Shown here: positions 8,899 through 39,995 of the stretch, one piece after another
How positions within the stretch are numbered: the stretch's first letter is position 1
How the letters are laid out: each line of letters starts with the position of its first letter
Assembly: GCA_030688205.1 (NCBI GenBank)
Contig: JAUYIQ010000056.1
Span: forward strand, 1-41,419
Direction of reading: 5' to 3'
Source of the DNA: Candidatus Curtissbacteria bacterium
Lineage (GTDB): Bacteria > Patescibacteriota > Microgenomatia > Curtissbacterales > GWA2-41-24
Length of the DNA: 41,419 nucleotides
Notes under the pieces: generated by a model
What the model was told of the DNA's origin: nothing
Seen by the model: only the letters and a program-made list of their open reading frames with translations
The model's database searches: none
Program-made: the position numbers and the translations under genes

Positions 8899-9966
8899 CT
8901 AGCTGACAAGTTTGGCGGCCCCCAGTATTTCACTGTCTTCAATTTTGGCGAATTTAGTTCTGTATTCCGGCGCGAGTTGCTTTAAATACCTTTCTATTTT
9001 TGGTCTGAGGCTGTGCCAGAACAGGCTTCCTTCCATAACAAAAACGAGGTCTCTTTGGGAAAAATCGGTGATTGCTGCCATTGCCGAAGCAACGAGTCCT
9101 GCAGATTTCTCAAAAAGATAACGGGCGATTTCTGAAGGCTCGCCCAGGTTTTTGTTGGCAAGGGCATTTAACTGAGCGGTTGAGGTAATCTGTTTGTGCT
9201 GTATGTTTTTGTTTTTGAGGATTTGGTCAAATTGCTTAAAAAGATAAGCACCCGCAGTTTCTTTTTCAAAAAGATATTTGTTTTTTTGTGTTGACTGGCG
9301 GTCAATCTGTTTTGTTTCTTCGCTGACTGGGAATTTATCGAAATTACCGGACTCCAAGTTTACGAGCTGTTCACTATCTAAAAAGATTGAAAAGTTAATA
9401 CCTGTGCCTACAACGCCTGCCGCAATCTGATTCCATGAATATTGGGTAAGCGCGGAGAGTAATAAGGCTATGGTGTCGTTGGCTACTGCCACTTTAATTG
9501 CCTTTTTTGATTTTTGAAGAATATAGTTTTCAATTTCTTCGCCAACTTTTTTTCCTGTAAGACCATCGAACAGATGTTCTTTCGTGCCGGAGATAAGAAC
9601 TCCGTCAAGTCGACTGTCTCGAAGAATTGGTTTTATGGGAAAGGTGAAATTGAGAGCAAGAGTTTTTGTTTCCTCATCGAGATTTTTCCTGATAAACTCT
9701 AAAAAATCAGCCTTCGTTTTGAAAGTACTTGCGTACATTTCCTGTTTTTGCAGAATTTTTAATTTTCCACTTTGGTATTTAACTTTTGCTTCTTTGCAGA
9801 CCGTACCGCCAGTTACAATCACTTGAAAAATTTCGTTTTCTTTCACTATTTTTGTTTGTGGAAGCTGATGAACTATAAAGGCAAGGCTGGTTTCTTTGCC
9901 TGTTTTGGCTGCCTTTAATTCTTTAAGGAAATTATTACGGACTGTTTTTAATGTTTTGATGTCCAT
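8899..9966 (-). CDS. hexokinase-family sugar kinase (eukaryote-type hexokinase fold)
   Basis: Matches the hexokinase motif series: LALNFTFPIKP (LGFTFSFP), VANDTIALLLS (NDTVGTL), GVVGTGINFS (GTGTNA), FEKETAGAYL (FEKMISGMYLGE), VMEGSLF (DGSVY). Confidence 0.75.
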   Translation of the reverse strand: MDIKTLKTVRNNFLKELKAAKTGKETSLAFIVHQLPQTKIVKENEIFQVIVTGGTVCKEAKVKYQSGKLKILQKQEMYASTFKTKADFLEFIRKNLDEETKTLALNFTFPIKPILRDSRLDGVLISGTKEHLFDGLTGKKVGEEIENYILQKSKKAIKVAVANDTIALLLSALTQYSWNQIAAGVVGTGINFSIFLDSEQLVNLESGNFDKFPVSEETKQIDRQSTQKNKYLFEKETAGAYLFKQFDQILKNKNIQHKQITSTAQLNALANKNLGEPSEIARYLFEKSAGLVASAMAAITDFSQRDLVFVMEGSLFWHSLRPKIERYLKQLAPEYRTKFAKIEDSEILGAAKLVS

Positions 9967-11954: not shown

Positions 11955-13310
11955 ATGGCTTTGTCTTGCGCGTATCTGCTCATAAGAAGTATGATTGTGA
12001 GTGTGCACAACACACCGGTTGAGGCCTCATACCCTTTAGAATTTCGTGTGGAAGAAGCAAAAAACCTTGGAGAGCAGCTCAGGTTCAGGCATAACGTCGA
12101 GCTTGTGGGTATGAAGCACGTTGGAATCGGTAACTTCCTGAGCTATTTTCTCAACCATGCCGGGGTTGTAGACAGGTTTATAAACCACGGAGAAAAACAC
12201 CTTTTTATCACGGTAGACCTCAATGATCTGGTTGAGCGTGAAATTCATCCCTTTTGGGTTCTTTTATTTAAGCGAGTTGTAGATAGCTGCGAAAGCATTG
12301 AAATTGATCTTGCTGACAAAAAAGAAATTTCCTCGCTGTTTTTAAGTTCTATCCAGTCCCAAGACTTGTTTTCAACCATTGAAAATTTGAAAAAATCCTT
12401 GAATCTTATTGTCAAAAACGATTTTCTGCCGACTATTTTCTTGCTTCGTCTTGACAGGCTCAAAGACGTATTTAACGAGGAGTTTTTTAGCAATTTGGAA
12501 GGGCTTGTCGATGCAACCGGCCAAAAGCTAGCGTATGTTTTTACAAGTTACAGATCTTTAGGAGAAATAGCACAACCTTTTTTCGAAAAGAAATACCCGA
12601 CGCTTTTTCCAAATAAGATTTATGTGAAACCTGCAGGGGAGAGTGATACACAAATCATATTTAAAACATTTGAGAAAAAATATGAACTTGTATTAGATAA
12701 GGTCATTTTAAAGAAAATTTTTGATCTTTCTGCGGGTCATGTTCAGTATCTTCAGCTTTCGCTTCTGATACTCAAGCAAAAAATCGGAGATAATTCGGTA
12801 GATGCCAGTCGCCTGATGGCAACTATTGCAGCCGACGAAAGAGTCAATTTGCTTTCAGAGGAAATCTGGGAAAGTTTGACACGGGAAGAGCAAGAAGTTC
12901 TGAAAAAAATAAGGACGGGGAAAAGTATCGGTGAGCTGGAGAAGAAAAAAGCGCAGTATTTATGGGATTGTGGAGTTGTGAGTGCAAAAAACAGTCAGAT
13001 AGCAATTTTTAATCCCTTGTTCGAAAATTATCTTAAAGGAAGTGATGTTAAAGGGGATCGAATTGAGGCTGTTGAATTTACCAAAAAAGAGAATTTACTT
13101 TTTCTTCTTTTGAAGGAGTCTGTAGGTGAAGTATGCGAGAGGGAAAAAATAATAAAGACTGTTTGGCCGGAATATGAAGAAGTGGGAGTTTCCGATTGGA
13201 CAATAGACAGGCTAGTTGCAAGACTGAGGAATAAATTGAAGCAACAAAATAGTCCGTACACAATTAAAACCATCAAAACAAGAGGTTATATGTTGGTTGA
13301 GGAGAGTTAA
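11955..13310 (+). CDS. transcriptional regulator: degenerate NTPase-like N-domain plus C-terminal OmpR/PhoB-type winged helix
   Basis: The C-terminus (VCEREKIIKTVWPEYE...DWTIDRLVARLRNKL...IKTIKTRGYML) is a trans_reg_C fold. The N-terminal VELVGMKHVGIGNF resembles a Walker A that lacks the Lys. Start uncertain; an alternative ATG lies at 11991. Confidence 0.68.
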   Translation: MALSCAYLLIRSMIVSVHNTPVEASYPLEFRVEEAKNLGEQLRFRHNVELVGMKHVGIGNFLSYFLNHAGVVDRFINHGEKHLFITVDLNDLVEREIHPFWVLLFKRVVDSCESIEIDLADKKEISSLFLSSIQSQDLFSTIENLKKSLNLIVKNDFLPTIFLLRLDRLKDVFNEEFFSNLEGLVDATGQKLAYVFTSYRSLGEIAQPFFEKKYPTLFPNKIYVKPAGESDTQIIFKTFEKKYELVLDKVILKKIFDLSAGHVQYLQLSLLILKQKIGDNSVDASRLMATIAADERVNLLSEEIWESLTREEQEVLKKIRTGKSIGELEKKKAQYLWDCGVVSAKNSQIAIFNPLFENYLKGSDVKGDRIEAVEFTKKENLLFLLLKESVGEVCEREKIIKTVWPEYEEVGVSDWTIDRLVARLRNKLKQQNSPYTIKTIKTRGYMLVEES

Positions 13311-14094: not shown

Positions 14095-14635
14095 TGCTGA
14101 AATTTTGACGGAATCAGGGACATTGTTGCTACCACCTCAGGAGGCTCTTGCGCATATATCCTCGACAAATCGCTTTGCCAGAATTGTCATTGAAGTTTTA
14201 AGAAAAGGAGCTGAATTCAAGGACCAGACAGCAGAGTTGACCAGACATTACAATCGAAGTATCAGGAATTTTCGTGATTTGTTACGTTTTGATTGCGAGG
14301 TGCCGATTGGAGACTCGGATCAAACCGCACATATTGCCATTGTTTCTGAGAGAACACCAAAAGAATCGAAATCGTTTCCATTGACAGATGGCGTTGTGGA
14401 TTTTTTCTTATCTCCGACTAAATCTGCCGGGTTTCGCGGTAGCCACAAGTTAGCCCAAATAACAACTTCGCCGGATAAAATTTCCCTTCCGGAATTTAGA
14501 TTTGATTTGTCATCGAATTTTGGCAAATTCGCAACGGATTTTATTGCGAGGCTTGCTGCCAGGCTGAATGAAATTAGAGAAGATATTTCGGGTGATCCTA
14601 CCCAGACGCCTCTTGCGGAGCCAAATCCATCCTAA
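14090..14635 (+). CDS. hypothetical protein
   Basis: 181-aa ORF with a strong Shine-Dalgarno (GAGGAGAG). No recognisable motif. Its 3' end overlaps the convergent GNAT gene by 38 nt. Confidence 0.6.
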   Translation: MPAEILTESGTLLLPPQEALAHISSTNRFARIVIEVLRKGAEFKDQTAELTRHYNRSIRNFRDLLRFDCEVPIGDSDQTAHIAIVSERTPKESKSFPLTDGVVDFFLSPTKSAGFRGSHKLAQITTSPDKISLPEFRFDLSSNFGKFATDFIARLAARLNEIREDISGDPTQTPLAEPNPS

Positions 14636-15044
14636 ACTCAAGCCCCCATTTTTTGAAGCCAAGATTTTCGTAGAATTTGTGAATATCGGCGCGGTCCATG
14701 CCTGAAGTAAAAATTATTTTGTAACAGTTTTTTCCTTTTGCAAGTTCTACAATTTTTTTGGAAAGAGCAGTGCCTATTCCTTTGCCCCTTTGTTTTTCGT
14801 CTACGATCATTCCTTCCAACAAGGCATAAGATTGACCGTGAGCAGGGATAGGCAGGTAAAAAATTGTGGCGGTACCAACAACTGTGCCGTCAATTTTGGC
14901 AACAAGTACACTGCAGTTGTCGTTTGCTATTAATTTTTCCAGTATTTCTGCGGCATTTGACGCAATATTTTCGACTCTGTAAATTTGCAACTGAAGCAGC
15001 AAAATGCCTTCGATGTCGTTTTTTGTGGCGAAGGTTATTTCCAT
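14598..15044 (-). CDS. GNAT-family N-acetyltransferase
   Basis: Acetyl-CoA binding motif QRGKGIGTAL. 148 aa. A TACAAT box lies 6 nt upstream of the ATG. Confidence 0.85.
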   Translation of the reverse strand: MEITFATKNDIEGILLLQLQIYRVENIASNAAEILEKLIANDNCSVLVAKIDGTVVGTATIFYLPIPAHGQSYALLEGMIVDEKQRGKGIGTALSKKIVELAKGKNCYKIIFTSGMDRADIHKFYENLGFKKWGLEFRMDLAPQEASG

Positions 15045-15091: not shown

Positions 15092-16309
15092 ATGAAGCTA
15101 TACGAATTTGAGGGGCATAAGATTTTTTCCAAGGTGGGCATTGAAAGCCCTTTTTTTGTGGTTATCTCTAAAGTTGAAGAGCTAGAGCAGGCCAGACGGC
15201 GGCTTAAATTCCCCATTGTTTGCAAGGTTCAGGTTCTTTCCGGCAAAAGAGGGAAAAGCGGTGGGGTCAAAGTTGCTATGAATGAAAAACAGCTGAAGGA
15301 TTTTGTCGGAGAATTTTTGGGAAAAGATTTCAATGGTGAAGAAGTCCGGTTTATTGAGCTTTGCAAAAAAGTTGATATTGAGGCTGAGAACTACATTTCT
15401 ATTACATACGACACTGTTTTGAAATCTCCATTTTTGCTTTTTTGTGCTGCGGGAGGTGTTGATATTGAAGAAGTTAAAAAAACAGATCCACAAGCGATTA
15501 TTAGATACGATTTTGACGTTTTTGCTGGACCCGTAAAAAAAGAGCTTGAAAAGCTTGGGATACCCTCGGACTTTGCAATGAGGCTTTGGGATGCTTTTTC
15601 CAAATATGATTGCCGGTTGGTTGAAGTGAATCCCTTCGCTCTTTGCAGAGCTCAGGGTAAACCACCTAAGTATGTGGCAGTTGATTCAAAGATAATTCTG
15701 GATGATGCAGGAGTTTCCCGTCATAGGGACTTGAACGTTTTGCCAAAGGGTGAAGTAGGAGCAGTTCCAACAGTGCGAGAGCTACAGGCTCGTGAAATAG
15801 ATGCTGAGGATTACAGAGGTACGGCCGGATCAAAATTTATTGAGTTTGATGGAGATATCGCGGTTCTTGCGTCTGGCGGTGGAGCGTCACTTCTTGTAAT
15901 GGACTCGATGTTTGCAGCAGGTGGAAAGCCGGCGAACTATACGGAATATTCCGGGAATCCGCCGAGAGAGAAGGTTGAAAAGTTAACGAAGATTGCTTTA
16001 TCTCGTGAGGGGCTTCGTGGTTGCTTAGTTGCGGGGGCTGTTGCTAACTTTACTGATATTTTTGAAACTCTATCCGGTTTTGTTGACGGTTTAGTTCAGG
16101 TTAAACCAAAGCCTGCTTATCCTATTGTGATTAGGCGCGGAGGGCCAAGATTGAAAGAGGCATATGAGATGCTTTCGCTTTTATCCAAAAAAGAAGGTTT
16201 TGACATTCATTTGTATGGACCGGAGACGCCAATTTCTGTCGCTGCGAAAAAGATGGTGGAACTGTCGGAGAAATTTAAGAAGTCGCAAGTTAAAAGTGCT
16301 AAGTTATAA
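15092..16309 (+). CDS. ATP-citrate lyase beta / citryl-CoA synthetase large subunit-like ATP-grasp protein (SucC homolog)
   Basis: Start at MKLYEFEGHKIF; the track ORF's upstream 76 codons overlap the GNAT gene. It has ACL-type motifs SGGGASLLV, ANYTEYSGNPP, VANFTDIF and IRRGGP instead of the SucC NGAGLAM / ANFLDVGGGA motifs. Confidence 0.82.
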   Translation: MKLYEFEGHKIFSKVGIESPFFVVISKVEELEQARRRLKFPIVCKVQVLSGKRGKSGGVKVAMNEKQLKDFVGEFLGKDFNGEEVRFIELCKKVDIEAENYISITYDTVLKSPFLLFCAAGGVDIEEVKKTDPQAIIRYDFDVFAGPVKKELEKLGIPSDFAMRLWDAFSKYDCRLVEVNPFALCRAQGKPPKYVAVDSKIILDDAGVSRHRDLNVLPKGEVGAVPTVRELQAREIDAEDYRGTAGSKFIEFDGDIAVLASGGGASLLVMDSMFAAGGKPANYTEYSGNPPREKVEKLTKIALSREGLRGCLVAGAVANFTDIFETLSGFVDGLVQVKPKPAYPIVIRRGGPRLKEAYEMLSLLSKKEGFDIHLYGPETPISVAAKKMVELSEKFKKSQVKSAKL

Positions 16310-16316
16310 ATTTAAA

Positions 16317-16344
16317 ACTTATGACTTGTAACTTATAACTTCAC
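16317..16344 (+). repeat. heptamer tandem array ACTTATG-ACTTGTA-ACTTATA-ACTTCAC
   Basis: Four 7-nt units filling the spacer immediately upstream of ATG 16347. No Shine-Dalgarno. Confidence 0.7.
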
Positions 16345-16346
16345 AT

Positions 16347-17237
16347 ATGGCAATTCTAGTAAATCGCGAAACAAGAATTTTAATTCAAGGCATTACAGGC
16401 AAACAGGGGAGCAGGGCTTGTTCGGAGATACTTTCTTATGGTGGGAATGTTGTCGGTGGCGTTACACCCGGCAAAGGTGGTCAGGAAGTTAGCGGACTGC
16501 CTGTTTTTAACACCGTTGGAGAAGCTTTGACTGCCCTTGGTGCTGTAGATGTTTCGATGGTTTATGCGCCGCCACTTATTGTTTTGGAGGCGGCTTGCGA
16601 AGCAGTAAATTCTAAAGTTCCACTTGTTCATATTTTTGCGGAAAATGTTCCCATTTTGGATGTTTGCAGAATTTTAACTCTTGCATCAAAGGCGGGTGTT
16701 CGTGTTTTGGGACCAAATTCTGTTGGTGCGATTTCACCAGGCGAAGGAAAGATCGGCTCAATAGGCGGACCGGATCCGGACGCCGTTTTTTCAAGAGGTC
16801 CTGTTGGTGTTATTTCCAAATCCGGCGGGATGTGTAGCGAACTCGGAAACTTGATAACAAGCGGTGGGTTTGGCCAGTCTACAGTTGTAGGTGTAGGTGG
16901 CGATTTGCTTATTGGAATAAGCTTTTCTGACCTTCTTTTAGAGTTTGAGAAGGATAGACAAACTAAATGCGTTGTTGCGTTTGGGGAAGTAGGGGGCAGT
17001 TCCGAAGTTGAGGCGGCAAAATTGATGAAAGAAGGGAAGTTTACGAAACCCTTTATTGTTTATTTGGCGGGTCGTTTTGCCGAAAAGTTGCCGAAAGATA
17101 CGGCGCTTGGACATGCCGGTGCAATTGTCGGGCTTGAAGCTACTATGGATGAGAAAATCAAAATTTTAAAAAATGCCGGAGCTGTAGTTGCTGAGAATTT
17201 TGAGGATATCCCGGGTTTGATTAAATCCGCGATTTAA
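16347..17237 (+). CDS. succinyl-CoA synthetase alpha-like / citryl-CoA synthetase small subunit-like (CoA-binding, phosphohistidine)
   Basis: GGVTPGKGG...GLPVFNTV CoA-binding motif, SKSGGM, and the phosphohistidine loop LGHAGAIV. 296 aa. Confidence 0.9.
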   Translation: MAILVNRETRILIQGITGKQGSRACSEILSYGGNVVGGVTPGKGGQEVSGLPVFNTVGEALTALGAVDVSMVYAPPLIVLEAACEAVNSKVPLVHIFAENVPILDVCRILTLASKAGVRVLGPNSVGAISPGEGKIGSIGGPDPDAVFSRGPVGVISKSGGMCSELGNLITSGGFGQSTVVGVGGDLLIGISFSDLLLEFEKDRQTKCVVAFGEVGGSSEVEAAKLMKEGKFTKPFIVYLAGRFAEKLPKDTALGHAGAIVGLEATMDEKIKILKNAGAVVAENFEDIPGLIKSAI

Positions 17238-17252
17238 CTATATACTTAAGGC

Positions 17253-17990
17253 ATGGCTCGAGCTTATCGCACCGCAATTACCACTCACGTTGACGGAGGG
17301 CTTTACGTTTACGGACACAATTTAGTCGATCTTGCCGGAAATACTTCTTTTGCAAAAGCTATTTTTCTAATTTTAAAAGGCGAAATGCCGGATAAGTCTT
17401 CCGAGAAGATGTTCGAGGCAATTTTGACTGTTGCCATAGATCACGGTGTAGAACCAGCTTCCGTGGTGGCCGCAAGAAATATTTATTCGGGTGGAAGTCC
17501 GGTTCAGGCTGCGGTTGCGGGGGGAATTTTGGCGCTGGGTGAATTTCATGGCGGTGCAATTGAGGCTGCGATGGAGAACTTCAAAAAATACGAATCGGTG
17601 GGAGTAAAAAGGTTAGTTGAGGATTTTGCAAAAAGCGGTACGCGGGTTGCAGGATTCGGACATAGACTATACGACACCGATCCAAGAACGCAGAGACTTT
17701 TGGAAGTTGCAAAACAAAACGGATTTTTTGGTAAATATGTTAAGTTTGCACTTTTGTGCGAAGGGGAGATATCTAAGGGTGGTAAGAAATTACCATTGAA
17801 CATAGATGGTATTGTCGCTGCACTTTTACTGGAGATGGATTTTAATCCGAAAGTAGGAAAAGGTGTTTTTATTATCGCCAGAACTCCAGGACTTGTTGCT
17901 CATGTTGTGGAGGAAGCGCTTCGCGAGAAACCTGTTCGCAGGCTTTTGGAAAAAGACGTTGAGTACGATGGGCCAAGGCCACGGAAATGA
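17253..17990 (+). CDS. short citrate-synthase-fold protein, citryl-CoA lyase-like
   Basis: 245 aa. Carries the catalytic-type motifs EFHGGA and GFGHRLYDTDPR but lacks the N-terminal half of a true citrate synthase. Confidence 0.8.
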   Translation: MARAYRTAITTHVDGGLYVYGHNLVDLAGNTSFAKAIFLILKGEMPDKSSEKMFEAILTVAIDHGVEPASVVAARNIYSGGSPVQAAVAGGILALGEFHGGAIEAAMENFKKYESVGVKRLVEDFAKSGTRVAGFGHRLYDTDPRTQRLLEVAKQNGFFGKYVKFALLCEGEISKGGKKLPLNIDGIVAALLLEMDFNPKVGKGVFIIARTPGLVAHVVEEALREKPVRRLLEKDVEYDGPRPRK

Positions 17991-18505
17991 TAATCTTCGG
18001 CATAGATCCCGGTACGGCTACCACTGGCTATGGGATAATAAAGTCTGATTCCGACAGGACGAAAAACGGATTCGAACTGGTAGAATACGGATGTATAGTC
18101 ACCCCCAAAGAGCAGGAAATGCCTCTGAGGCTTTATAGTATCCAAAAAGAGTTATCTAAGCTGTTGAAATTGCATAAACCTGATTGTGTAGTGGTTGAAC
18201 AATTGTTCTTTGGCGTTAATTCCAGAACAGCTATGACTGTTGGCCAGGCCAGGGGAGTAGTGCTCTCAACGGCTGCTGGCTATAGGCTTCCCATTTTTGA
18301 ATATCAGGGATTGCATGTAAAGCGTACGTTAACCGGTAGTGGCAAATCTGATAAACGCGAAATACAAAAATACGTAATGAAATACTTGAACAAAAGGAAG
18401 TTAAAAAAGCCCCTTCTGATAGGAAAGGGCAAAGGGTATATTGATGATGCTGCGGATGCACTTGCTGTTGCTATTTGTCATGTAATTAAAATCAGTGTAG
18501 CGTGA
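17987..18505 (+). CDS. ruvC: crossover junction endodeoxyribonuclease RuvC
   Basis: N-terminus IFGIDPGTATTGYGII and a C-terminal DDAADALAVAICH acidic catalytic motif. Confidence 0.92.
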   Translation: MIIFGIDPGTATTGYGIIKSDSDRTKNGFELVEYGCIVTPKEQEMPLRLYSIQKELSKLLKLHKPDCVVVEQLFFGVNSRTAMTVGQARGVVLSTAAGYRLPIFEYQGLHVKRTLTGSGKSDKREIQKYVMKYLNKRKLKKPLLIGKGKGYIDDAADALAVAICHVIKISVA

Positions 18506-19311
18506 AATTACCTGATCTTCACAAAATTACTTCATACGAGATAACTAAGCGTCAAAAGATAGTTTTGATGGCGCTTTTTTTAACGGTTGTTTTAATTACT
18601 ACCCAGACAGTGGGGGAATCAGTAAGATATCAGACTATTGGTTTCCTGACTCTAGCTACTGTTTTACTTTCGATTTTTGCATTGTGGGGAGAATTGTCGG
18701 GAGTCAAATACTTTTTGCTTCTTTTGTTACCGGCGTATTTTGTTGCGGGTGCTTCGCTTTTTTACTTTTTACTACCGGTGAGATGGCTGACCAGGTTGCC
18801 GTTTGCAGCTTTATTTGGGGTTTCGGTGTACTTACTGATGCTTACGTCAAACATTTATAACGTTGCGTCCATTCGAACAATTGCACTACTTCGGGCAGCA
18901 AATGCTGTTGGCTTATTGTTTTCACTTGTTTCTACTTTTTTTCTTACAAACGTACTATTTTCTCTTCATTTTCCGTTTTACCTTAATGTTATTGGAATAG
19001 CTTTAATAACCGGCCCACTGTATTTGGTGGGGGTTTGGGCGAGTGAACTTGAGGATTATATTTCCCAACGGGCTTTTTGGTACGCTGTTGTATTTACTAT
19101 GGTAACTTCTCAGGTGGGGCTTGTACTTTCTTTTTGGCCAATCGTACCCATAAACGGAGCTTTGGCAATTGCGACTGTTATGTATGCACTGTTGGGGCTT
19201 TCTCAGCTTTATTTGGAAGATAAACTCAAAAGCAGAGTGTTATGGGAACATATAGGTGTGGCACTTTTGGTTTTTGTGATTATCACAATTTCAACAAGGT
19301 GGGGCGGATAG
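18502..19311 (+). CDS. hypothetical polytopic membrane protein
   Basis: 269 aa with about 8 predicted TM helices. GTG start overlapping the ruvC stop (GTGA). Confidence 0.7.
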   Translation: MKLPDLHKITSYEITKRQKIVLMALFLTVVLITTQTVGESVRYQTIGFLTLATVLLSIFALWGELSGVKYFLLLLLPAYFVAGASLFYFLLPVRWLTRLPFAALFGVSVYLLMLTSNIYNVASIRTIALLRAANAVGLLFSLVSTFFLTNVLFSLHFPFYLNVIGIALITGPLYLVGVWASELEDYISQRAFWYAVVFTMVTSQVGLVLSFWPIVPINGALAIATVMYALLGLSQLYLEDKLKSRVLWEHIGVALLVFVIITISTRWGG

Positions 19312-20232: not shown

Positions 20233-21732
20233 ATGGATATACTAGACTTAGAAGATCAGCTTTCCAAATTTATTTATGAACTTGAAACCGAAGACCGTTT
20301 GGTTCGAGTTGGTTTAAAAGATACTGCCGAAAGTTCTAAGATTTACAAAAAATACAAAAGTATATTCACCGAAAAAAATCTTTCTGAGATTCAGGCACTG
20401 ATTTCAAAAACAAAAAACCCCGGGACACGTGATATATATAAGCGAATTTATTTCACGATAGCAGGAAGTTTTATCGGGCTTGCAACCGCTTCATCAGAAG
20501 ACCAGATAACCACTTATTTTTCGGGTGCAAAAGTTAAGGTTGCGGGCGAAGAAATTCCATACTATGAGCTGATGCCTAGAATTTCAAAAGACACGGTATT
20601 TGAAAAACGAGAGAGACTGGACGACGCAGGAACTTCTGTGGTTTCAAAAGTTAATTCTAAACGATTAAAACTTGTGCAAGATGAATTGAAACTAATCAAG
20701 AAGCTTGGATTTTCAGACTATGTTGATTATTTTTCCAAAGGGAAAAAGATGGATTATGCGAAGTTTTACAAAGTTGTGAATAAGATTACGAAGGAAACGG
20801 ATAAGATCTGGAATAAGGTTATGTTTCAGGTGTCTCAGGAGGTTTTCAAGAGGCCTTTTGTCAATATTCGCTCATGCCACCTGGCATATTTAAGGTCTAT
20901 CTCGATGTATGACAATTATTATCCAAAAGAAAAAGTTGTGCCAACATTTTTAAAATGGACGCAAGATATTGGTTTAGCCGATTTGATTCCTTCAATTCAG
21001 ATTGATGACCGCGACAGGCCAAAGAAAAATCCAAGGGCCGTTTGCTATTGGCCAAAGCCACCGGAGGAGATTCATTTGGTTATAAAACCCATCGGTGGCG
21101 AACAGGATTTTGAGGCTTTATTTCATGAAGGTGGTCATGCTCTGCATGGGGCGTCTGTTTCTGTAAAACTCCCTTACACCCTTCGCGCACTCGCCCACTC
21201 TAATGCACTCACCGAAACATATGCGTTTTTATTGGAAGACATGGTTTTTGATCCCGATTTTCTGACCTCTTACCTGAACGTAAGCTCTTTTACCGGCAAT
21301 AAAATCAAATGGCAGGCATATTTTGTAAACCTTATGATGCTCCGGCGTTATTTGGGAAAATTCTCATATGAATATGAAATGTTTTCAAAAGGTGCAATTT
21401 CTAAAGGTCCGCTTCTCTACTCTAAGAATTTACAAAGAACTACCGGATTTATAACTAAGCGCGAAAATTGGCTTGCCGATATGGATGGTGGATTTTATAG
21501 TGCGGATTATCTACGTGCCTGGATATCTGCCGCTCAGATTCACGATTATATCAAGAGAAAATTCGGTAAGAAATGGTTTGTTAACGGGAAGACCGGAGAG
21601 TTTTTGCGAAAACTCTACTCACGAGGGGTTACGGATGAGATTGAGGATGTGGTGACAAGATTAGGATACAAGCCTTGGGATACGAGTTATTTGATTAGCG
21701 GCTATCGAGACGTTCTTGGTAAGGGTGAGTAA
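20233..21732 (+). CDS. M3-family (oligoendopeptidase F-like) zinc metallopeptidase
   Basis: HExxH motif in the context FHEGGHALHG. 499 aa. Confidence 0.68.
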   Translation: MDILDLEDQLSKFIYELETEDRLVRVGLKDTAESSKIYKKYKSIFTEKNLSEIQALISKTKNPGTRDIYKRIYFTIAGSFIGLATASSEDQITTYFSGAKVKVAGEEIPYYELMPRISKDTVFEKRERLDDAGTSVVSKVNSKRLKLVQDELKLIKKLGFSDYVDYFSKGKKMDYAKFYKVVNKITKETDKIWNKVMFQVSQEVFKRPFVNIRSCHLAYLRSISMYDNYYPKEKVVPTFLKWTQDIGLADLIPSIQIDDRDRPKKNPRAVCYWPKPPEEIHLVIKPIGGEQDFEALFHEGGHALHGASVSVKLPYTLRALAHSNALTETYAFLLEDMVFDPDFLTSYLNVSSFTGNKIKWQAYFVNLMMLRRYLGKFSYEYEMFSKGAISKGPLLYSKNLQRTTGFITKRENWLADMDGGFYSADYLRAWISAAQIHDYIKRKFGKKWFVNGKTGEFLRKLYSRGVTDEIEDVVTRLGYKPWDTSYLISGYRDVLGKGE

Positions 21733-25528: not shown

Positions 25529-28500
25529 CTAGTTTCTATGGGTGACGTATGAGCTCCATGGTAGGGCTTTTAGGTCCTCGAGTTTTTTCTCGGAGATGCT
25601 TCTTGCGAAAAGTTCTGCGGTTTGCATGTTTGTCAGAAGCGGAATGCCAAAATCCACTGTTGTACGTCTTATTACATAGTCGTCGTCAAATTCAGTTTTA
25701 AAGTACGGGTCGACGACGTTTATGACAAGGTCGATTTTCTTTTGAAGAAGATAGTCCAGAACATTTGGTTTTTTCTTTTCGTGGATTTTATGAAGTTTTT
25801 CAGACATAATTTTATGTGAATTTAGAAAAGCTGATGTGCCTTCTGTTGCATATATTTTTAGACCCATTTGATCAAGAATCTTGGCACTTGTGAGGAACTT
25901 CAATTTATTCTCTTCGCCGGCAAGGGAAATAAAAACTGATTTTTTGGGCATTTTTACCCCGGTTGCAATTATGGATTTAAGAAATGCTTCAGAAATATCA
26001 TTTCCAAAACATGCGACTTCACCGGTTGATGACATCTCGACTCTCAGAATCGGGTCTGCGCCTTTCACCCTTGAAAAAGAGAACTGCGGAGCTTTGACAC
26101 CAACGTAAGAAATTCCATTAGTAGCATTGGCAACGTCGCTCGGGGTCCTGTCATCAGTTTCCATCCCGCCAGTGCTCGTCGACTTAACGCTTGATGTGTT
26201 AGGTTGATTCCATTTGGTTGACTGCGCGCTGTCGGGAGCCCTCCCACTGATGCCACCCCTCGCGAGAATTGCTTCAGTTGCGATTTTTACGAAGTTTACT
26301 CCGGTTACTTTTGAAACAAATGGCAGGCTTCTTGATGCACGAAGATTGCACTCAATTACCATTACCTTGTTGTCTTTTGCAAGGAATTGAATGTTGAAAG
26401 GGCCCGTTATTTTAAGAGAGCTTGTAATTTTTTCGGTGATTGCCAGTATTTGCTTTTCTGTTTCGAGATAAATCTTCTGTGCCGGTAGAACCATTGTTGC
26501 GTCCCCTGAATGAACCCCGGCATTTTCTACGTGTTCTGAGATTGCATAGGTTAGCACACTTCCTCTGTTTGCGATGGCGTCTATTTCGATTTCTTTAGTA
26601 TTTTCAAAATACTTTGAGATAACAACCGGATATTTTTCTGAAATGTTCGATGCAAGTTTGAGATAGTTTTTGAGGTCTTCCTCGTTAAAGGCGACATTCA
26701 TTGCTGCTCCTGAAAGAACATATGACGGTCTAACCAGAACGGGAAAACTAACTTTTTGGGCAAAGCTTATTGCTTCTTTTATGTTTTTAAGCATGGCCCA
26801 CGGAGGTTGATCTATTTCCAAAGTATCGCAAAGTTTAGAAAACTTATTGCGGTCTTCTGCCTGGTCGATAGAGCCTGGGCTTGTCCCTAAAATTCTGGCA
26901 CCGGCAGCTGCAAGATCCATCACCAAATTGTTAGGAGTTTGGCCTCCCATTGAAACTATAATGCCTTGCGGGTTTTCCTTTTTGTATATTTCCATAACCG
27001 CTTCTTTAGAAAGTTCTTCGAAGTAAAGTTTTTTAGCCATGTCAAAATCTGTTGAAACAGTTTCCGGATTGCAATTGATGATAATTGGAGAAAACCCAAG
27101 ACTTTGTGCCGTTTGGGCGCAGGTTACGCTACACCAATCAAATTCTACGGAGGAGCCAATTCGGTAAGGTCCGGAGCCAAGAACAATAATAGATTTTGGA
27201 TTTTGGATTTTGGATTTTGGATCTATGTCGTCACAGTCCCCGTTATATGTGAGGTATAGATAATTGGTTTCTGCAGGATATTCTGCAGCAAGGGTGTCGA
27301 TTTGTTTTGCCGCGGGGTGAATGTTAAATTTATGTCTTTGTTCTCTTATGTTTCCTTCAGTGGTGTTTTTTAACTGTGCAAGTCGCATATCGGCGAAGCC
27401 GTATTGTTTTGCTTTTTGCAAAAGTTCTCTGTCCAGTTTGGATTTTTGGATTTCTTTTTCTAAATTAGCGATGTTTTTAATTTTTTCCAGAAAGAAAGGA
27501 TCTATGCCGGTTTTTTTGTATATATCTGGAATTTGTATGCCCGTCTTAATGGCTCTTGCTACGGCGAACAGTCTTGTTGGTGTAGGAGTTTCCCAGTCAT
27601 CTTCCTGATTCTTTTCGTCTAAGAGTCCCGTAAGACCAAGATCGAGCATGCGTACTGCTTTTTGAAGCGCTTCTTCAAACTTTCTTCCAATTGCCATAAC
27701 CTCACCTACTGATTGCATATAGGAGCCTATTCGATAATCGCTTTTTTGGAATTTGCCAAGATCCCATCTGGGGAATTTAACGACTATGTAATCGAGGGCC
27801 GGTTCGAAAGCGGCTGTAGTCTTTTTGGTGACTGAGTTTTTAAGTTCGGTTAAGCCATATCCGAGCCCGAGTTTTGCTGCAATGTATGCTAGTGGATATC
27901 CGGTGGCTTTTGATGCCAAAGCTGAGCTTCTGGATAAGCGGGCGTTGACTTCAATGATACGGTAATCAGGAGAATAGTTGCCAGTATCCAGGGACCAGTC
28001 ATGACTTTTTTTCTTTCCGGTCTCTGGTCTCTGGTCTCTATTTACTGGCTGTGGATTCAAAGCGAATTGGATATTGCACTCGCCTACTATTCCCAAATGC
28101 CTTATTACTTTTATGGCAATTTCCCGAAGCGTGTGATATTCGTTGTTGTTTAGTGTTTGTGAGGGGGCAACTACGATAGATTCACCGGTGTGGATTCCCA
28201 TCGGATCGACGTTTTCCATGTTGCAGACCGTTATGCAGTTATCGTATTTGTCCCGGACTACCTCGTACTCTATTTCTTTCCAGCCGGCTAGGTATTCTTC
28301 GATTAAAACCTGTGGAGATTTGGTAAGCGAACGGGTTATCGCTTCTTCCAAATCATTCATATTTGTAAAGACCCCTGAATCCTGTCCGCCGAGAGAGAAA
28401 GCGCTTCTTACAATAACCGGGAAGCCTATTTTTTTAATTGCTTCTTTGGCTTTTTGAATTGAATGTACGGCAGCGCTTTTTGGGATTGCCAGATCAATAC

Positions 28501-28891
28501 TTTGCAGCATTTTGGCAAAGAGCGCGCGGTCTTCTGTTATTTCGATTGCAGAGATCCCGGTTCCCAGAACTTTTACGTTATATTTTTTCAAAACTCCTGA
28601 TTTTGCAAGAGCAAGGCCGCAGTTAAGAGCTGTTTGACCGCCAAAAGAAAGCAGGATTCCATCTGGTTTTTCGCGCTTTATTACCTCTTCTACAAAGTGT
28701 GGTTCGACGGGAAGAAAGTAAACCTGGTCGGCAAAATCTTTTGAAGTTTGGATGGTTGCTATGTTTGGATTGATTAGAATTACTTCGGCCCCCTCTTCTT
28801 TCAAAGCTTTAATAGCTTGCGAGCCGGAATAATCGAATTCTCCGGCTTGGCCGATTTTCAAGGCACCTGATCCTAGTAATAAAACTTTCAT
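25529..28891 (-). CDS. carB: carbamoyl-phosphate synthase large subunit, with lineage-specific insertions
   Basis: 1120 aa. Two ATP-grasp halves (IEVNARLSRSSALASKATGYPLA; ECNLRASRSLPFVSKVTG). ATGA overlap with carA. Confidence 0.96.
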   Translation of the reverse strand: MKVLLLGSGALKIGQAGEFDYSGSQAIKALKEEGAEVILINPNIATIQTSKDFADQVYFLPVEPHFVEEVIKREKPDGILLSFGGQTALNCGLALAKSGVLKKYNVKVLGTGISAIEITEDRALFAKMLQSIDLAIPKSAAVHSIQKAKEAIKKIGFPVIVRSAFSLGGQDSGVFTNMNDLEEAITRSLTKSPQVLIEEYLAGWKEIEYEVVRDKYDNCITVCNMENVDPMGIHTGESIVVAPSQTLNNNEYHTLREIAIKVIRHLGIVGECNIQFALNPQPVNRDQRPETGKKKSHDWSLDTGNYSPDYRIIEVNARLSRSSALASKATGYPLAYIAAKLGLGYGLTELKNSVTKKTTAAFEPALDYIVVKFPRWDLGKFQKSDYRIGSYMQSVGEVMAIGRKFEEALQKAVRMLDLGLTGLLDEKNQEDDWETPTPTRLFAVARAIKTGIQIPDIYKKTGIDPFFLEKIKNIANLEKEIQKSKLDRELLQKAKQYGFADMRLAQLKNTTEGNIREQRHKFNIHPAAKQIDTLAAEYPAETNYLYLTYNGDCDDIDPKSKIQNPKSIIVLGSGPYRIGSSVEFDWCSVTCAQTAQSLGFSPIIINCNPETVSTDFDMAKKLYFEELSKEAVMEIYKKENPQGIIVSMGGQTPNNLVMDLAAAGARILGTSPGSIDQAEDRNKFSKLCDTLEIDQPPWAMLKNIKEAISFAQKVSFPVLVRPSYVLSGAAMNVAFNEEDLKNYLKLASNISEKYPVVISKYFENTKEIEIDAIANRGSVLTYAISEHVENAGVHSGDATMVLPAQKIYLETEKQILAITEKITSSLKITGPFNIQFLAKDNKVMVIECNLRASRSLPFVSKVTGVNFVKIATEAILARGGISGRAPDSAQSTKWNQPNTSSVKSTSTGGMETDDRTPSDVANATNGISYVGVKAPQFSFSRVKGADPILRVEMSSTGEVACFGNDISEAFLKSIIATGVKMPKKSVFISLAGEENKLKFLTSAKILDQMGLKIYATEGTSAFLNSHKIMSEKLHKIHEKKKPNVLDYLLQKKIDLVINVVDPYFKTEFDDDYVIRRTTVDFGIPLLTNMQTAELFARSISEKKLEDLKALPWSSYVTHRN
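27192..27219. repeat. perfect (GATTTTG)x4 heptamer array inside the carB coding sequence
   Basis: Read on the coding strand as (CAAAATC)x4, encoding DPKSKIQNPKS in the inter-domain linker. Confidence 0.9.
28019..28039. repeat. perfect (GGTCTCT)x3 heptamer array inside the carB coding sequence
   Basis: Coding strand (AGAGACC)x3 encodes RDQRPET, within an ~30-aa insert relative to the canonical F.LNP...IEVN.R block. Confidence 0.9.
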
Positions 28892-29931
28892 TTGAATTGC
28901 TCCATAAAGCGGTCGAATAAAAATTCGGTGTCTTTTGGGCCAGGGTTGTTTTCTGGGTGAAACTGAACTGAAAAAAATGGCAGTTTTTTGTGGATGATGC
29001 CTTCGTTTGTGTTGTCATTTGCGTTATAAAACCAGCGTTTGAAATCTTTGGGAAGTTTTTTTTCGTCAACTGCAAAACCGTGATTCTGGGTTGTAATGTA
29101 GCAGCGTTTTGTCCCAACTTGGATTGTCGGTTGGTTTTGAGCACGGTGTCCAAATTTGAGTTTGTAAGTATCGCCTCCTGCAGCAAGGGCTAAAAGTTGG
29201 TTGCCAAGACAAATCCCGAATGTAGGTATTTTGCGAGAGAGCGATTTTTTGATGATTGCAATTGATTCATCTGCCTTTTTCGGATCTCCGGGTCCGTTTG
29301 AAATCATAAGACCATCAATTGGTAAATTGTTTTCGAAAGGGTCGTAGTTCCATGGAAGTTCGAAAACGGTAGCTTCTCGAGATAGCAAGCTGCGAAGAAT
29401 ATTTTTCTTGGCACCGCAGTTGAGAAGTCCTATTTTTACTCTTCCTCCTTTGTGGATTTTTAAACTTTTTGGTGAAACTTGACTGACTAGGTTTTGTTCG
29501 TTAGGATCTGTGAGTTTGACATCATGGTCTACTACAATTTTCCCGAGCATTACGCCCTTTTCTCGCAGCTTTTGCGTGAGAGCACGGGTATCTATGCCGA
29601 AAATACCTGGGACACCTTCATCTTTTAGCCACTTATCTAATGTTCTTTCCGATTGCCAGTGAGACGGATGGGTTGTAAGGTCGCTTATTACTAGTCCCGC
29701 GACATGGATTTTTTCAGATTCCCAGACTTCTTTTGGCGGAACTCCCCAGTTTCCGATCAGGGGATATGTAAACGTTAGGATCTGTCCCGCGTAAGAAGGG
29801 TCTGTAAGTGAGAGATCGTAGCCAACCATTCCTGTTGCGAAAACGACTTCCCCTGCTTGAGATTTTGGTGCACCGAAGGATTGGCCTTCGAATATTGTAC
29901 CGTCTTCCAGAATTAGTTTGGCTTTTTTCAT
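28888..29931 (-). CDS. carA: carbamoyl-phosphate synthase small (glutaminase) subunit
   Basis: 347 aa. Class I amidotransferase motifs GICLGNQLL and FSVQFHPE. Confidence 0.96.
   Translation of the reverse strand: MKKAKLILEDGTIFEGQSFGAPKSQAGEVVFATGMVGYDLSLTDPSYAGQILTFTYPLIGNWGVPPKEVWESEKIHVAGLVISDLTTHPSHWQSERTLDKWLKDEGVPGIFGIDTRALTQKLREKGVMLGKIVVDHDVKLTDPNEQNLVSQVSPKSLKIHKGGRVKIGLLNCGAKKNILRSLLSREATVFELPWNYDPFENNLPIDGLMISNGPGDPKKADESIAIIKKSLSRKIPTFGICLGNQLLALAAGGDTYKLKFGHRAQNQPTIQVGTKRCYITTQNHGFAVDEKKLPKDFKRWFYNANDNTNEGIIHKKLPFFSVQFHPENNPGPKDTEFLFDRFMEQFK

Positions 29932-33993: not shown

Positions 33994-33994
<1 letters not shown>
33377..33994 (-). CDS. hypothetical protein (gyrB-gyrA intervening gene 1)
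   Basis: 205-aa ORF. Its ATG overlaps the gyrB TAA by 1 nt (TAATG). No recognisable motif. Confidence 0.65.
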
Positions 33995-37265
<3,271 letters not shown>

Positions 37266-38131: not shown

Positions 38132-39880
38132 ATGGCAGATGCTGCCCCAAACACAAACACGAGCGCTTCAAAAGTAGCTCATTCTCGTGCTACATACATT
38201 GAGGATGTACTAGCCGCTAAAGGTCTTTTAACCACTCAGCAACTCACTTTTATTAAGAGTGAGTCTAAAAGAAGACAAGAACCACCTGAAAAAATTCTGT
38301 CTCAAATGGGGTGGGTATCTCAAGAACAATTAGCCTCTGCAAGAGCAGATGTCATTGGTGTTCCTTACGTGGATCCTTCTACAGCGCCAATTTCGCCTGA
38401 AGTTCTAGCTTTTTTGCCCGAAGAAGTTGCGAAAAGATTTGTGGTCATTCCTACTGCAAAAGAAGGTGATACTTTGTCTGTAGCCATGGTAGATCCTTTG
38501 GACTTGCAGGTTTTGGAATTTATCGAGAAAAAAAGTGGTTATGCTGTCAGGCCTTATATTGCTACTGCCGACGCTATAAATCGCGCAATTGCCGAACAAT
38601 ATACGAGAGGGCTTTCTTTCGAGGTTGGAGAGGCTTTAAAAGAAGCTTCTACGAATGTAATCATGCCTCTAACCGGTCCAGAGTCGATAACAGGAGTATT
38701 GGGAGAAGCACCTATTGCCCGAATAGTTTCAACGCTTTTGGAGTATGGCATTCGCGTTCGGGCGTCGGACATTCATATTGAGCCTCTGGAGAACGAGACC
38801 AGAATTAGATATAGAATTGACGGAATTTTACACGAGAAGTTGATTCTACCGAGGCGTATTCACGATGCAATCGTTTCCAGAATAAAAATTCTTGGAAATA
38901 TGAAGATTGATGAAAGGCGTTTGCCGCAAGATGCCCGGTTTAATTTTAAAATTGGGCAAGAAGATATTGATTTACGTCTTTCAACAATGCCAACTGCTTA
39001 CGGTGAAAAAATTGTAATGAGGCTTTTGAAAAAGTCCGGCGGAGTACCTACTCTACCCGAACTTGGACTTCGTGGAATGGCACTTAAGCATCTTGAAGAA
39101 AATATTGCAAGGCCGCACGGGATTATTTTGATTACAGGTCCGACCGGGAGTGGAAAAACTACTACTCTTTACTCTATTTTGTCCAAGTTAAATTCGACAA
39201 GAGTGAATATTGTAACGCTTGAAGATCCAATTGAGTATCAAATTGCGGGCGTGAATCAGGAACAGATTAATCAAAAGGCCGGGTTGACGTTTGCTTCAGG
39301 ACTTAGGTCTTTTTTACGTCAGGACCCGAACATTATTATGGTTGGAGAGATTCGTGATAATGAAACCAGTGATCTTGCGATTCAAGCTTCCTTAACCGGA
39401 CATTTGGTGTTTTCTACTTTGCATACGAATAATGCTGCAGGTGCTTTGCCCAGGCTTCTGGATATGAAAGCCCAGCCGTATTTAATTGCATCAACAGTTA
39501 CATGTGTTGTTGGCCAAAGGGTAGTCAGGATGATTTGCCAAACGTGTAAGGGGCCAAAAGTTATGAGTGAGGAAATTCTTGCTACAATAAAGAAAAGCTT
39601 GGGTAGTCTCTATAACTTTGATAAAGCTAAGGTCTCTCTTTATATTGGCCGCGGATGCAAAGAGTGTAACAATACAGGCTATTTGGGACGTATTGCTATT
39701 TTTGAGGTTTTAGTTGTTTCGGTGAAGGTTGCTGAGCTTATTTTGACTCATGCAACATCGCAAAATATTGAAAAGCAGGCAATTTCTGAAGGAATGATTA
39801 CAATGAAACAAGATGGGTTTTTGAAGGTTTTGGAAGGTGTCACATCAATTGAGGAGGTTTTGAGAGTAGCCGAAGAGTAA
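38132..39880 (+). CDS. pilB: type IV pilus assembly ATPase PilB / GspE family
   Basis: 582 aa. N-terminal T2SSE_N domain. Walker A GPTGSGKTTT, Asp/His boxes, and a C-terminal CxxC...CxxC zinc motif. Confidence 0.92.
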   Translation: MADAAPNTNTSASKVAHSRATYIEDVLAAKGLLTTQQLTFIKSESKRRQEPPEKILSQMGWVSQEQLASARADVIGVPYVDPSTAPISPEVLAFLPEEVAKRFVVIPTAKEGDTLSVAMVDPLDLQVLEFIEKKSGYAVRPYIATADAINRAIAEQYTRGLSFEVGEALKEASTNVIMPLTGPESITGVLGEAPIARIVSTLLEYGIRVRASDIHIEPLENETRIRYRIDGILHEKLILPRRIHDAIVSRIKILGNMKIDERRLPQDARFNFKIGQEDIDLRLSTMPTAYGEKIVMRLLKKSGGVPTLPELGLRGMALKHLEENIARPHGIILITGPTGSGKTTTLYSILSKLNSTRVNIVTLEDPIEYQIAGVNQEQINQKAGLTFASGLRSFLRQDPNIIMVGEIRDNETSDLAIQASLTGHLVFSTLHTNNAAGALPRLLDMKAQPYLIASTVTCVVGQRVVRMICQTCKGPKVMSEEILATIKKSLGSLYNFDKAKVSLYIGRGCKECNNTGYLGRIAIFEVLVVSVKVAELILTHATSQNIEKQAISEGMITMKQDGFLKVLEGVTSIEEVLRVAEE

Positions 39881-39883
39881 GAA

Positions 39884-39911
39884 AATTTTCAATTTGCAAT
39901 TCTCACTTTTC
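39884..39911 (+). repeat. heptamer array AATTTTC-AATTTGC-AATTCTC-ACTTTTC
   Basis: Four 7-nt units starting 4 nt after the pilB stop. Confidence 0.65.
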
Positions 39912-39927
39912 ATTGAATTTTCAATGA
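39910..39927. promoter_or_regulatory. perfect palindrome TCATTGAA-tt-TTCAATGA in the pilB-pilT spacer
   Basis: 8-bp arms with a 2-nt centre. Could be an operator or a small hairpin. Confidence 0.35.
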
Positions 39928-39963
39928 GTTAATTTTCAAATTGAGACATTGTTAATTGATTGA

Positions 39964-39991
39964 AAATTGTAAATTAGAAATTGTAAATTAA
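39964..39991 (+). repeat. heptamer/14-mer array AAATTGT-AAATTAG-AAATTGT-AAATTAA
   Basis: Two 14-nt units (four heptamers) ending 4 nt before the pilT ATG. Confidence 0.7.
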
Positions 39992-39995
39992 ATCA

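Follow-up and report, generated by a model that had tools for sequence, protein, structure and literature searches.

Bacteria of the candidate phyla radiation (CPR) and DPANN archaea are thought to be nearly without a central carbon metabolism of their own and to subsist on partner cells. What, in such an organism, is the task of genes that resemble a citrate-cleaving enzyme system? The question is raised by a contig from a metagenome-assembled genome of Candidatus Curtissbacteria (Microgenomates, CPR/Patescibacteria; JAUYIQ010000056.1, assembly GCA_030688205.1), of which positions 1 to 41,419 of the forward strand were analysed; this whole stretch of 41,419 nucleotides is referred to as the window. 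The initial annotation, made from the sequence alone, had described three consecutive genes and had likened them to the two-enzyme citrate cleavage of Hydrogenobacter thermophilus by citryl-CoA synthetase (CCS, subunits CcsA and CcsB) and citryl-CoA lyase (CCL, Ccl). The list of open reading frames (ORFs) of the window bore out three co-oriented plus-strand genes in 15092-17990, encoding proteins of 405, 296 and 245 amino acids, and the likeness was supported by the best match of the large subunit in the PDB, CcsA (204.7 bits), and by an end-to-end match of the third protein to CCL (231.6 bits). The operon probably encodes an ATP-dependent, two-enzyme citrate cleavage of the H. thermophilus type, by which imported citrate would be turned into acetyl-CoA. 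The features concerned are as follows.

15092-16309, plus strand: ccsA-like gene, 405 aa; large (beta) citryl-CoA synthetase subunit with an N-terminal ATP-grasp domain and a C-terminal citrate-binding domain of the ATP-citrate lyase (ACL) type.
15869-16147, plus strand: codons of the ACL-type substrate-site motifs of CcsA; ASGGGAS (aa 260-266), ANYTEYSGNPP (aa 281-291), VANFTDI (aa 317-323) and VIRRGGP (aa 346-352).
16347-17237, plus strand: ccsB-like gene, 296 aa; small (alpha) subunit with a Rossmann domain for CoA binding and a CoA-ligase domain that bears the phosphohistidine loop.
17112-17114, plus strand: codon of His256, predicted to be the catalytic phosphohistidine of GHAGA; LGHAGA is aa 254-259 of CcsB.
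17253-17990, plus strand: ccl gene, 245 aa; citryl-CoA lyase with a citrate-synthase fold minus the N-terminal half.
14598-15044, minus strand: gene of a GNAT-family acetyltransferase, 148 aa; Pfam Acetyltransf_1, 63.8 bits.

The spacers are 37 nucleotides between ccsA and ccsB and 15 nucleotides between ccsB and ccl, and the stop codon of ccl overlaps the start of the following ruvC gene by 4 nucleotides. The layout is operon-like, and the three genes form one operon. The start assigned to ccsA is an internal ATG of a longer ORF that begins with TTG; the public gene call of the identical protein agrees on this start. An identical copy of the large-subunit protein is also present in GCA_034372645.1. 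Promoter and terminator sites predicted near the operon were no more numerous than in shuffled sequence. The sole match of the Rfam and tRNA scans was a tRNA-Leu at the window edge.

Assignment of the three proteins

The domain and family matches of the three proteins are far beyond chance. The large subunit matched the Pfam domains ATP-grasp_2 (PF08442, E 4e-38) and Citrate_bind (PF16114, E 2e-25), the latter with 89.8 bits at a cut-off of 26.8. Its score with the SucC equivalog model of NCBIfam was 179.6 bits, well below the cut-off of 370. Among PDB chains, CcsA (6hxq_B) was followed by Chlorobium AclB with 155.5 bits and by SucC with at most 114 bits. When the C-terminal half was compared alone, the scores were 102 bits for CcsA, 95 bits for AclB and 32-35 bits for SucC.

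All motifs quoted in the initial annotation were present: ASGGGAS, ANYTEYSGNPP, VANFTDI, VIRRGGP and LYGPETP in the first protein, LGHAGA in the second, and FHGGA and GFGHRLYDTDPR in the third. That annotation had called the C-terminal half of the large subunit ACL-like rather than SucC-like, and alignment with human ACLY was in agreement. Four motif blocks align with ACLY, namely GGGAS (281-285; G281-G283), EYSG (G309), ANFT (N346/T348) and RRGGP (R379), and match those of Chlorobium AclB and human ACLY exactly or almost exactly. At the same columns SucC has NGAGL, NFLD.GGG, FGGI and VR..G, all of which are absent from the large subunit. The CcsA of H. thermophilus departs from the ACL pattern, with ANNTRI, RRNGP and DIGGNP in place of the ANFTDI, RRGGP and EYSGNP of the Curtissbacteria protein. 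Therefore, the CPR protein resembles ACL at this site more closely than does the one CCS that has been characterised.

A neighbour-joining (NJ) tree of the large subunit was calculated from 132 sequences including five PDB references, with bootstrapping on a 46-taxon subset. The SucC references formed a basal group (bootstrap 88%), and intermediate clades carried other motifs. The window protein fell with CcsA and AclB into a large clade with the RR.GP and ANF/NT motifs (bootstrap 63%). An NJ tree with such moderate support suffices to reject a position inside SucC and is insufficient for the branching order of CcsA, AclB and the CPR clade. Together with the equivalog score and the Citrate_bind domain, the tree placed the ATP-grasp subunit outside SucC, as had been proposed from the motifs.

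Relatives of the large subunit numbered 273 at E < 1e-30 among 1.84 billion cluster representatives. The identical protein is on record as 'ATP citrate lyase citrate-binding domain-containing protein [Candidatus Curtissbacteria]'; database names of relatives differ and include 'acetate--CoA ligase family protein' and 'succinyl-CoA synthetase beta subunit'. Some relatives are considerably longer than 400 aa (P0124, 561 aa; P0178, 602 aa; P0232, 1023 aa). They may be fusions with other subunits, representing intermediate architectures between CCS and ACL.

The small subunit consists of the Pfam domains CoA_binding and Ligase_CoA, and its GHAGA aligns with the GHAGA of SucD. The SucD equivalog score was 271.5 bits, under the cut-off of 336. 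The caveat of the initial annotation, that the subunit sizes are closer to SucCD than to the H. thermophilus enzymes, held for this subunit, which has 296 aa compared with 353 aa in the CcsB chain, and not for the other two (PDB chains of 429 aa for CcsA and 268 aa for CCL).

The lyase passed the curated citryl-CoA lyase model of NCBIfam (NF004869) with 274.8 bits at a cut-off of 212. Residues 1-244 of its 245 align with residues 1-250 of H. thermophilus CCL (6hxp_A; 231.6 bits, E 1e-67), and the NCBI name of the identical protein is 'citryl-CoA lyase'. Scores were at most 92 bits against solved citrate synthases and about 53 bits against the C-terminal module of ACL. Like citrate synthase and 2-methylcitrate synthase, the protein has the fold of the catalytic C-terminal half and the His/His/Asp triad; unlike citrate synthase (about 370-430 aa), it is without the N-terminal half. 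Its citrate synthase match in Pfam covers profile positions 162-353 of 357 only, and it scored far under every cut-off of the NCBIfam citrate synthase models. The residues His99, His137 and Asp185 we take to correspond to the catalytic triad of pig citrate synthase.

Compared with the H. thermophilus system (PDB 6hxq, 6hxp), the Curtissbacteria system has the same number of separate polypeptides with equal domain content. The large subunit and the lyase have their best solved matches there, and the phosphohistidine loop and the His/His/Asp triad are present. The Curtissbacteria system differs in its short, SucD-like small subunit, in the ACL-type citrate site, in the arrangement of the genes in a single tight three-gene operon and in its non-autotrophic CPR host. 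With ATP-citrate lyase (EC 2.3.3.8; Chlorobium AclBA, 6hxj; human ACLY) it shares the overall chemistry, the citrate-binding motif blocks and the position of AclB in the same NJ clade. However, in ACL the alpha subunit is fused to a citryl-CoA-lyase module, whereas the Curtissbacteria genes are set apart by a stop codon and the 15-nt spacer, and stand-alone CCL is a much better match to the lyase (232 bits) than the ACL module is. The system is not an ACL, because the defining fusion of alpha subunit and lyase is absent. With SucCD it has in common the superfamily, the two-subunit architecture, the phosphohistidine mechanism and a small subunit of SucD length that is most similar to SucD. In contrast to SucCD, the large subunit carries an ACL citrate-binding domain in place of the C-terminal SucC motifs, both subunits stay under the curated cut-offs, and a citryl-CoA lyase gene always accompanies the pair. 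By the tests available, which compare sequences, the system is assigned to the CCS/CCL type (CCS, EC 6.2.1.18).

Distribution and conservation of the cassette

The distribution of the system was determined by a pattern scan, with the pattern derived from a 12-sequence alignment and one genome used per GTDB species. A relative was found in 380 genomes. The best 80 loci, denoted by L-numbers, were examined together with their flanks (80 x ~12 kb, about 930 kb). They belong to Curtiss-, Davies-, Woese- and Woykebacteria, Magasanikbacteria, unnamed Patescibacteria and DPANN archaea. The cluster representatives that carry a name, at 40-48% identity, are Woesearchaeota and Diapherotrites. The initial annotation had treated the system as unexpected in this genome, and this has to be adjusted: it is widespread in Microgenomates and DPANN archaea and not a one-off.

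The order ccsA-ccsB-ccl on one strand was kept in every locus that was long enough. In all 80 loci ccsB was the next cassette gene after ccsA, with a small ORF between the two in a few, and ccl was present in 72 of the 80, missed only at contig ends. In every related locus ccsB and ccl were separate genes. The flanking genes varied by lineage.

Small ORFs occurred within the cassette, mostly in the gap between ccsB and ccl, in L005, L009, L011, L019, L021-L023, L030, L044, L053, L057, L059, L068, L070 and L076. From reading of the sequences they include toxin-antitoxin-like pairs, proteins of the four-helix-bundle 'rRNA intervening sequence' type, YerC/Trp-repressor-like proteins and GIY-YIG nucleases. 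They look like selfish or toxin-antitoxin-type genes and not like pathway genes.

In the CcsA tree, archaeal sequences were interspersed among bacterial ones. This scatter suggests inter-domain transfer, with the qualification that some labels of metagenome-assembled genomes (MAGs) are unreliable. A contig labelled 'Nanoarchaeia' (L039) has ftsL-, mraW- and mraZ-like clusters, as read from the sequence, which also occur in Woykebacteria loci, and groups with Woykebacteria. CPR-like contigs are often titled 'uncultured Gammaproteobacteria' (L006, L009 and many others).

Homologues of CCS and CCL in CPR and DPANN genomes, mis-annotated as succinyl-CoA synthetase or citrate synthase, were reported in a 2022 bioRxiv preprint. 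The CPR-labelled taxa in its supplementary table are Magasanikbacteria and Candidatus Ozemobacter only, the latter label being doubtful. DPANN MAG papers mention CCS/CCL genes in passing. In the literature, nothing specific was found that ties Curtissbacteria or Microgenomates to citrate, citrate lyase or succinyl-CoA synthetase, and nothing on a Microgenomates-wide operon, on an association with glm or mur genes, or on citryl-CoA together with N-acetylglucosamine. The enzyme type is already known and annotated; the Microgenomates-wide operon and its glm/mur context were not found in the literature.

Conservation was assessed in 81 CcsA, 69 CcsB and 72 Ccl orthologues, with lowest identities to the window proteins of 41%, 45% and 32%, respectively. 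In CcsA, at least 97% conservation was found for K45 (the ATP-grasp lysine), R53, E178, N180, D198 and the four motif blocks, in which the residues are G262-G264, S266, N282, T284-P290, A318-T321, R348, R349, G351 and P352. The same threshold was reached in CcsB by QGxTG, P41, K43, GE214xGG and G255-H256-A257-G258-A259, and in Ccl by H99-G-G-A, G-x-G-H137, D143-P-R145, N183-x-D185-G and R210. The ratio of nonsynonymous to synonymous substitution rates (dN/dS) was 0.06-0.12 in those comparisons with three Curtissbacteria orthologues in which dS allowed an estimate; in the others dS was saturated. These values indicate that the three genes are functional and not relics, with the lyase under purifying selection.

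The conservation data bear on the reading of the locus as an ordinary SucCD pair beside a truncated, decaying citrate synthase. The best matches of the small subunit are indeed SucD, and several databases call the relatives succinyl-CoA synthetase or citrate synthase. However, both subunits miss the SucC and SucD equivalog cut-offs by a wide margin, the SucC motifs are absent from the large subunit, and the third protein is full-length compared with the solved CCL, is kept in 72 loci with an intact triad and is under purifying selection. The reading is contradicted by these data and is extremely unlikely. The initial annotation had named a pseudogenised citrate synthase as the alternative to a stand-alone lyase; the lyase stood.

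A different substrate was also considered, such as another hydroxy-polycarboxylate, for example 2-methylcitrate (yielding propionyl-CoA and oxaloacetate), or another acyl-CoA. The NDP-forming acyl-CoA synthetase superfamily covers a wide range of specificities, the tree contains sister clades whose motifs are altered, the database names of the relatives vary, and the host has no obvious need for citrate metabolism. Against this, the four motif blocks match Chlorobium AclB and human ACLY and are at least 97% conserved, the H. thermophilus CcsA, although proven, departs further from the ACL pattern, and the lyase passes the curated citryl-CoA lyase model. We consider a substrate other than citrate quite unlikely.

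Gene neighbourhood, direction of the reaction and role

Pfam and NCBIfam scans of most window ORFs of at least 110 aa detected no tricarboxylic acid (TCA) cycle gene besides the cassette, in line with what had been noted at first reading. Among the conserved clusters and the inspected ORFs of the 80 related flanks, no genes of the TCA cycle, the reductive TCA (rTCA) cycle, anaplerotic reactions or citrate transport were found. In particular, 2-oxoglutarate:ferredoxin oxidoreductase, fumarate reductase, aconitase, isocitrate dehydrogenase and malate dehydrogenase, as well as phosphoenolpyruvate (PEP) carboxylase and pyruvate carboxylase, were found neither in the scanned window ORFs nor among the conserved and inspected flank genes. 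No genes of the CitDEF type were seen. CitDEF, the citrate lyase of fermenters, is a functional analogue that splits citrate outside the TCA cycle in citrate-importing anaerobes. It is unrelated in sequence, yields acetate and not acetyl-CoA, and is ATP-independent after activation.

A part in CO2 fixation by the rTCA cycle, of the kind seen in Aquificaceae and Leptospirillum, is the sole experimentally established context of CCS and CCL. However, neither the window nor the conserved and inspected genes at the 80 loci yielded another rTCA gene, published CPR genomes are without TCA cycle and autotrophic pathways, and according to the preprint complete cycles occur in few of the taxa that bear CCS and CCL. 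Because no TCA genes were found among the scanned window ORFs and the inspected flank genes, and published CPR genomes are without the cycle, CO2 fixation is very unlikely, and the rTCA role was rejected.

GlmU and GNAT proteins consume acetyl-CoA, and Kbl makes it. Genes of these kinds recurred next to the cassette. A GlmU-type gene lies within 6 kb of the cassette in 31 of the 80 loci and directly upstream on the same strand in 20, of which 10 have a spacing of -41 to +7 nt from ccsA. The upstream position is filled by three families: TIGR03992-like (archaeal-type bifunctional), the C-terminal domain of TIGR01173 (stand-alone bacterial acetyltransferase) and TIGR03991 ('alt_bact_glmU'). Three kinds of GlmU at one position argue for repeated recruitment rather than inherited synteny.

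Further genes of amino-sugar and cell-wall synthesis were found in individual loci. L049 has the order kbl-glmS-glmU-yvcK-ccsA-ccsB-ccl, the four upstream genes scoring above their NCBIfam cut-offs, and L043 the order murE-glmU(AT)-ccsA-ccsB-ccl-murC-murB-murA. In L033, ddl, murI, murB/D and murC stand on one flank and yvcK, murE and murA on the other. Tdh- and Kbl-like genes lie beside the cassette in L064. The Magasanikbacteria loci L075 and L081 have glmS-yvcK-GNAT-methyltransferase-ccsA; in L075 only, glmS is followed by a HAD phosphatase-like gene. One of the genes in L033 (2476-4668, minus strand) encodes an apparent MurB-MurD fusion of 730 aa, the N-terminal part being a UDP-N-acetylmuramate dehydrogenase and the C-terminal part a MurD ligase.

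The GNAT gene of the window is divergent from ccsA and lies 47 nt upstream. A GNAT gene upstream on the opposite strand was found in about 16-19 of 25 loci of the Curtissbacteria clade, depending on the method (with phmmer, the window and 15 others). Against the PDB, glucosamine-6-phosphate N-acetyltransferases matched the window protein weakly (30 bits), behind an uncharacterised acetyltransferase. Tentatively, the window GNAT is taken as a functional partner that consumes acetyl-CoA.

With acetyl-CoA consumers and producers as neighbours, the simplest reading is the cleavage direction, with acetyl-CoA used for amino-sugar acetylation. From the gene context of the orthologous loci we infer that the cassette supplies acetyl-CoA for this purpose, with oxaloacetate as the second product. 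The initial annotation had suggested the scavenging of host or partner citrate as a possibility, and the neighbourhoods in related genomes point that way, toward production of acetyl-CoA. Supply of acetyl-CoA outside a TCA cycle would resemble the role of cytosolic ACLY in eukaryotes, which is established knowledge.

The data show the domain content, the nearest relatives of solved structure, the conservation of catalytic residues, the strict linkage of the three genes and the purifying selection, and from these the substrate, the direction and the physiological role are inferred. The proposed mechanism has two steps. In the first, CcsA and CcsB would use ATP bound in the ATP-grasp domain to phosphorylate His256 of the 296-aa subunit. 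The phosphate would travel on the phosphohistidine loop to the site to which the C-terminal citrate-binding domain contributes, where citryl phosphate would be made and attacked by CoA on the small subunit, giving citryl-CoA, ADP and phosphate (Pi). In the second step, His99, His137 and Asp185 of Ccl would drive the retro-Claisen cleavage of citryl-CoA to acetyl-CoA and oxaloacetate. Imported citrate would in this way yield acetyl-CoA, and the by-product oxaloacetate would serve for aspartate or PEP, with no fixation of CO2. The main use of the acetyl-CoA would be N-acetylation of amino sugars (UDP-N-acetylglucosamine, UDP-GlcNAc, and peptidoglycan precursors), besides other acetylations.

The reaction could also run in reverse, with Ccl condensing acetyl-CoA and oxaloacetate and CcsAB converting citryl-CoA, ADP and Pi to citrate, CoA and ATP. 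An ATP-conserving citrate synthase of this kind has been proposed for the ATP-citrate lyase of Desulfobacter postgatei. The overall reaction is known to be close to equilibrium, and CPR bacteria, judging from published genomes, depend on substrate-level phosphorylation. The acetyl-CoA-producing Kbl adjoins the cassette in L049 and L064, in the latter with a Tdh-like gene, and could feed it. However, the reverse run needs stoichiometric oxaloacetate, and no oxaloacetate-forming or citrate-consuming enzyme was found in the scanned window or the inspected flank ORFs. In addition, the commonest neighbours, of the GlmU type and GNAT family, consume acetyl-CoA, which fits its supply better than its removal. 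Net synthesis of citrate is therefore unlikely.

Several points weigh against cleavage of imported citrate as the function. The small subunit resembles SucD more than CcsB, with PDB scores of 254 bits for Aeropyrum SucD, 187 bits for CcsB and 118 bits for AclA. The bootstrap value of the citrate clade is just 63%. That the aligned residues of human ACLY contact citrate, as reportedly described by Sun et al. 2010, is taken here as an assumption. No citrate transporter was recognised among the genes of the window. It is in orthologous loci that the glm/mur association was observed, and within the window the GNAT gene is its one representative. Other sources of acetyl-CoA, such as pyruvate:ferredoxin oxidoreductase (PFOR), may be present in the host genome; PFOR has been reported in another Microgenomates genome. 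As to direction, the sequence alone does not fix it, because ATP-citrate lyase works close to equilibrium. Peptidoglycan is lacking in DPANN archaea, and the role can therefore not be the same in all of these organisms. We know of no biochemistry for any CPR or DPANN member.

A wider proposal is that the cassette is a dedicated source of acetyl-CoA for amino-sugar N-acetylation (UDP-GlcNAc, peptidoglycan) across Microgenomates and other CPR bacteria. The walls of these organisms would then depend on citrate from the host or the environment, the cassette would be a bacterial counterpart of cytosolic ACLY in its role, and it would be exchanged as a unit between CPR and DPANN organisms. In this full extent the proposal is less likely than not.

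Other genes of the window and meaning of the cassette

Two neighbours of the operon recur in related loci. At 17987-19311 on the plus strand, ruvC is followed by the gene of a DUF5656 membrane protein; about 23-24 related loci, almost all from the Curtissbacteria clade, have this pair 3' of the cassette. A recombination gene would here be co-transcribed with a metabolic operon. A plus-strand gene at 11955-13310 encodes a protein of 451 aa that has an OmpR-type winged helix at its C-terminus and, weakly, an AAA_35-like region. Eight Curtissbacteria loci (cluster c16) have the gene in synteny upstream of GNAT and ccsA, and the protein is possibly a regulator.

A complete carbamoyl-phosphate synthase pair is encoded at 25529-29931 on the minus strand (carB, 1120 aa; carA, 347 aa). 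Its presence implies some pyrimidine or arginine synthesis, which needs aspartate; that this aspartate derives from the oxaloacetate of the cassette is speculative. Also on the minus strand, 33994-37224 encodes DNA gyrase subunit B of 1076 aa with an intein (Intein_splicing, aa 449-873, between the GyrB and Toprim domains), and 8899-9966 a protein of 355 aa that matched Pfam Hexokinase_1 and Hexokinase_2 (eukaryote-type) and no NCBIfam model, a type of sugar kinase unusual in a bacterium. A plus-strand ORF of 499 aa at 20233-21732 contains an HEGGH motif of the HExxH type and had no Pfam or NCBIfam match; it may represent an undescribed metallopeptidase family. The plus-strand genes at 38132-41051 encode type II/IV secretion ATPases, one PilB-like (582 aa) and one PilT-like (351 aa), which are typical of the CPR pilus apparatus.

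The assignment corrects the inconsistent labels of the first two subunits, which have been called succinyl-CoA synthetase, CoA-binding protein or members of the acetate--CoA ligase family. Unfused enzymes with ACL-type motifs are also useful material on the origin of ATP-citrate lyase and citrate synthase from CCS and CCL. For the biology of these organisms, a conserved cassette under selection in hundreds of CPR and DPANN genomes represents a testable metabolite link, with citrate going in and acetyl-CoA and oxaloacetate coming out. Its strict conservation in ultra-small organisms without a TCA cycle, together with the recurrent clusters of cell-wall precursor genes, leads to a specific hypothesis on what the partners provide. 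If the link to glmS, glmU and the mur genes is functional, it would name a molecule behind cell-wall synthesis and could aid cultivation, for example by the feeding of citrate.

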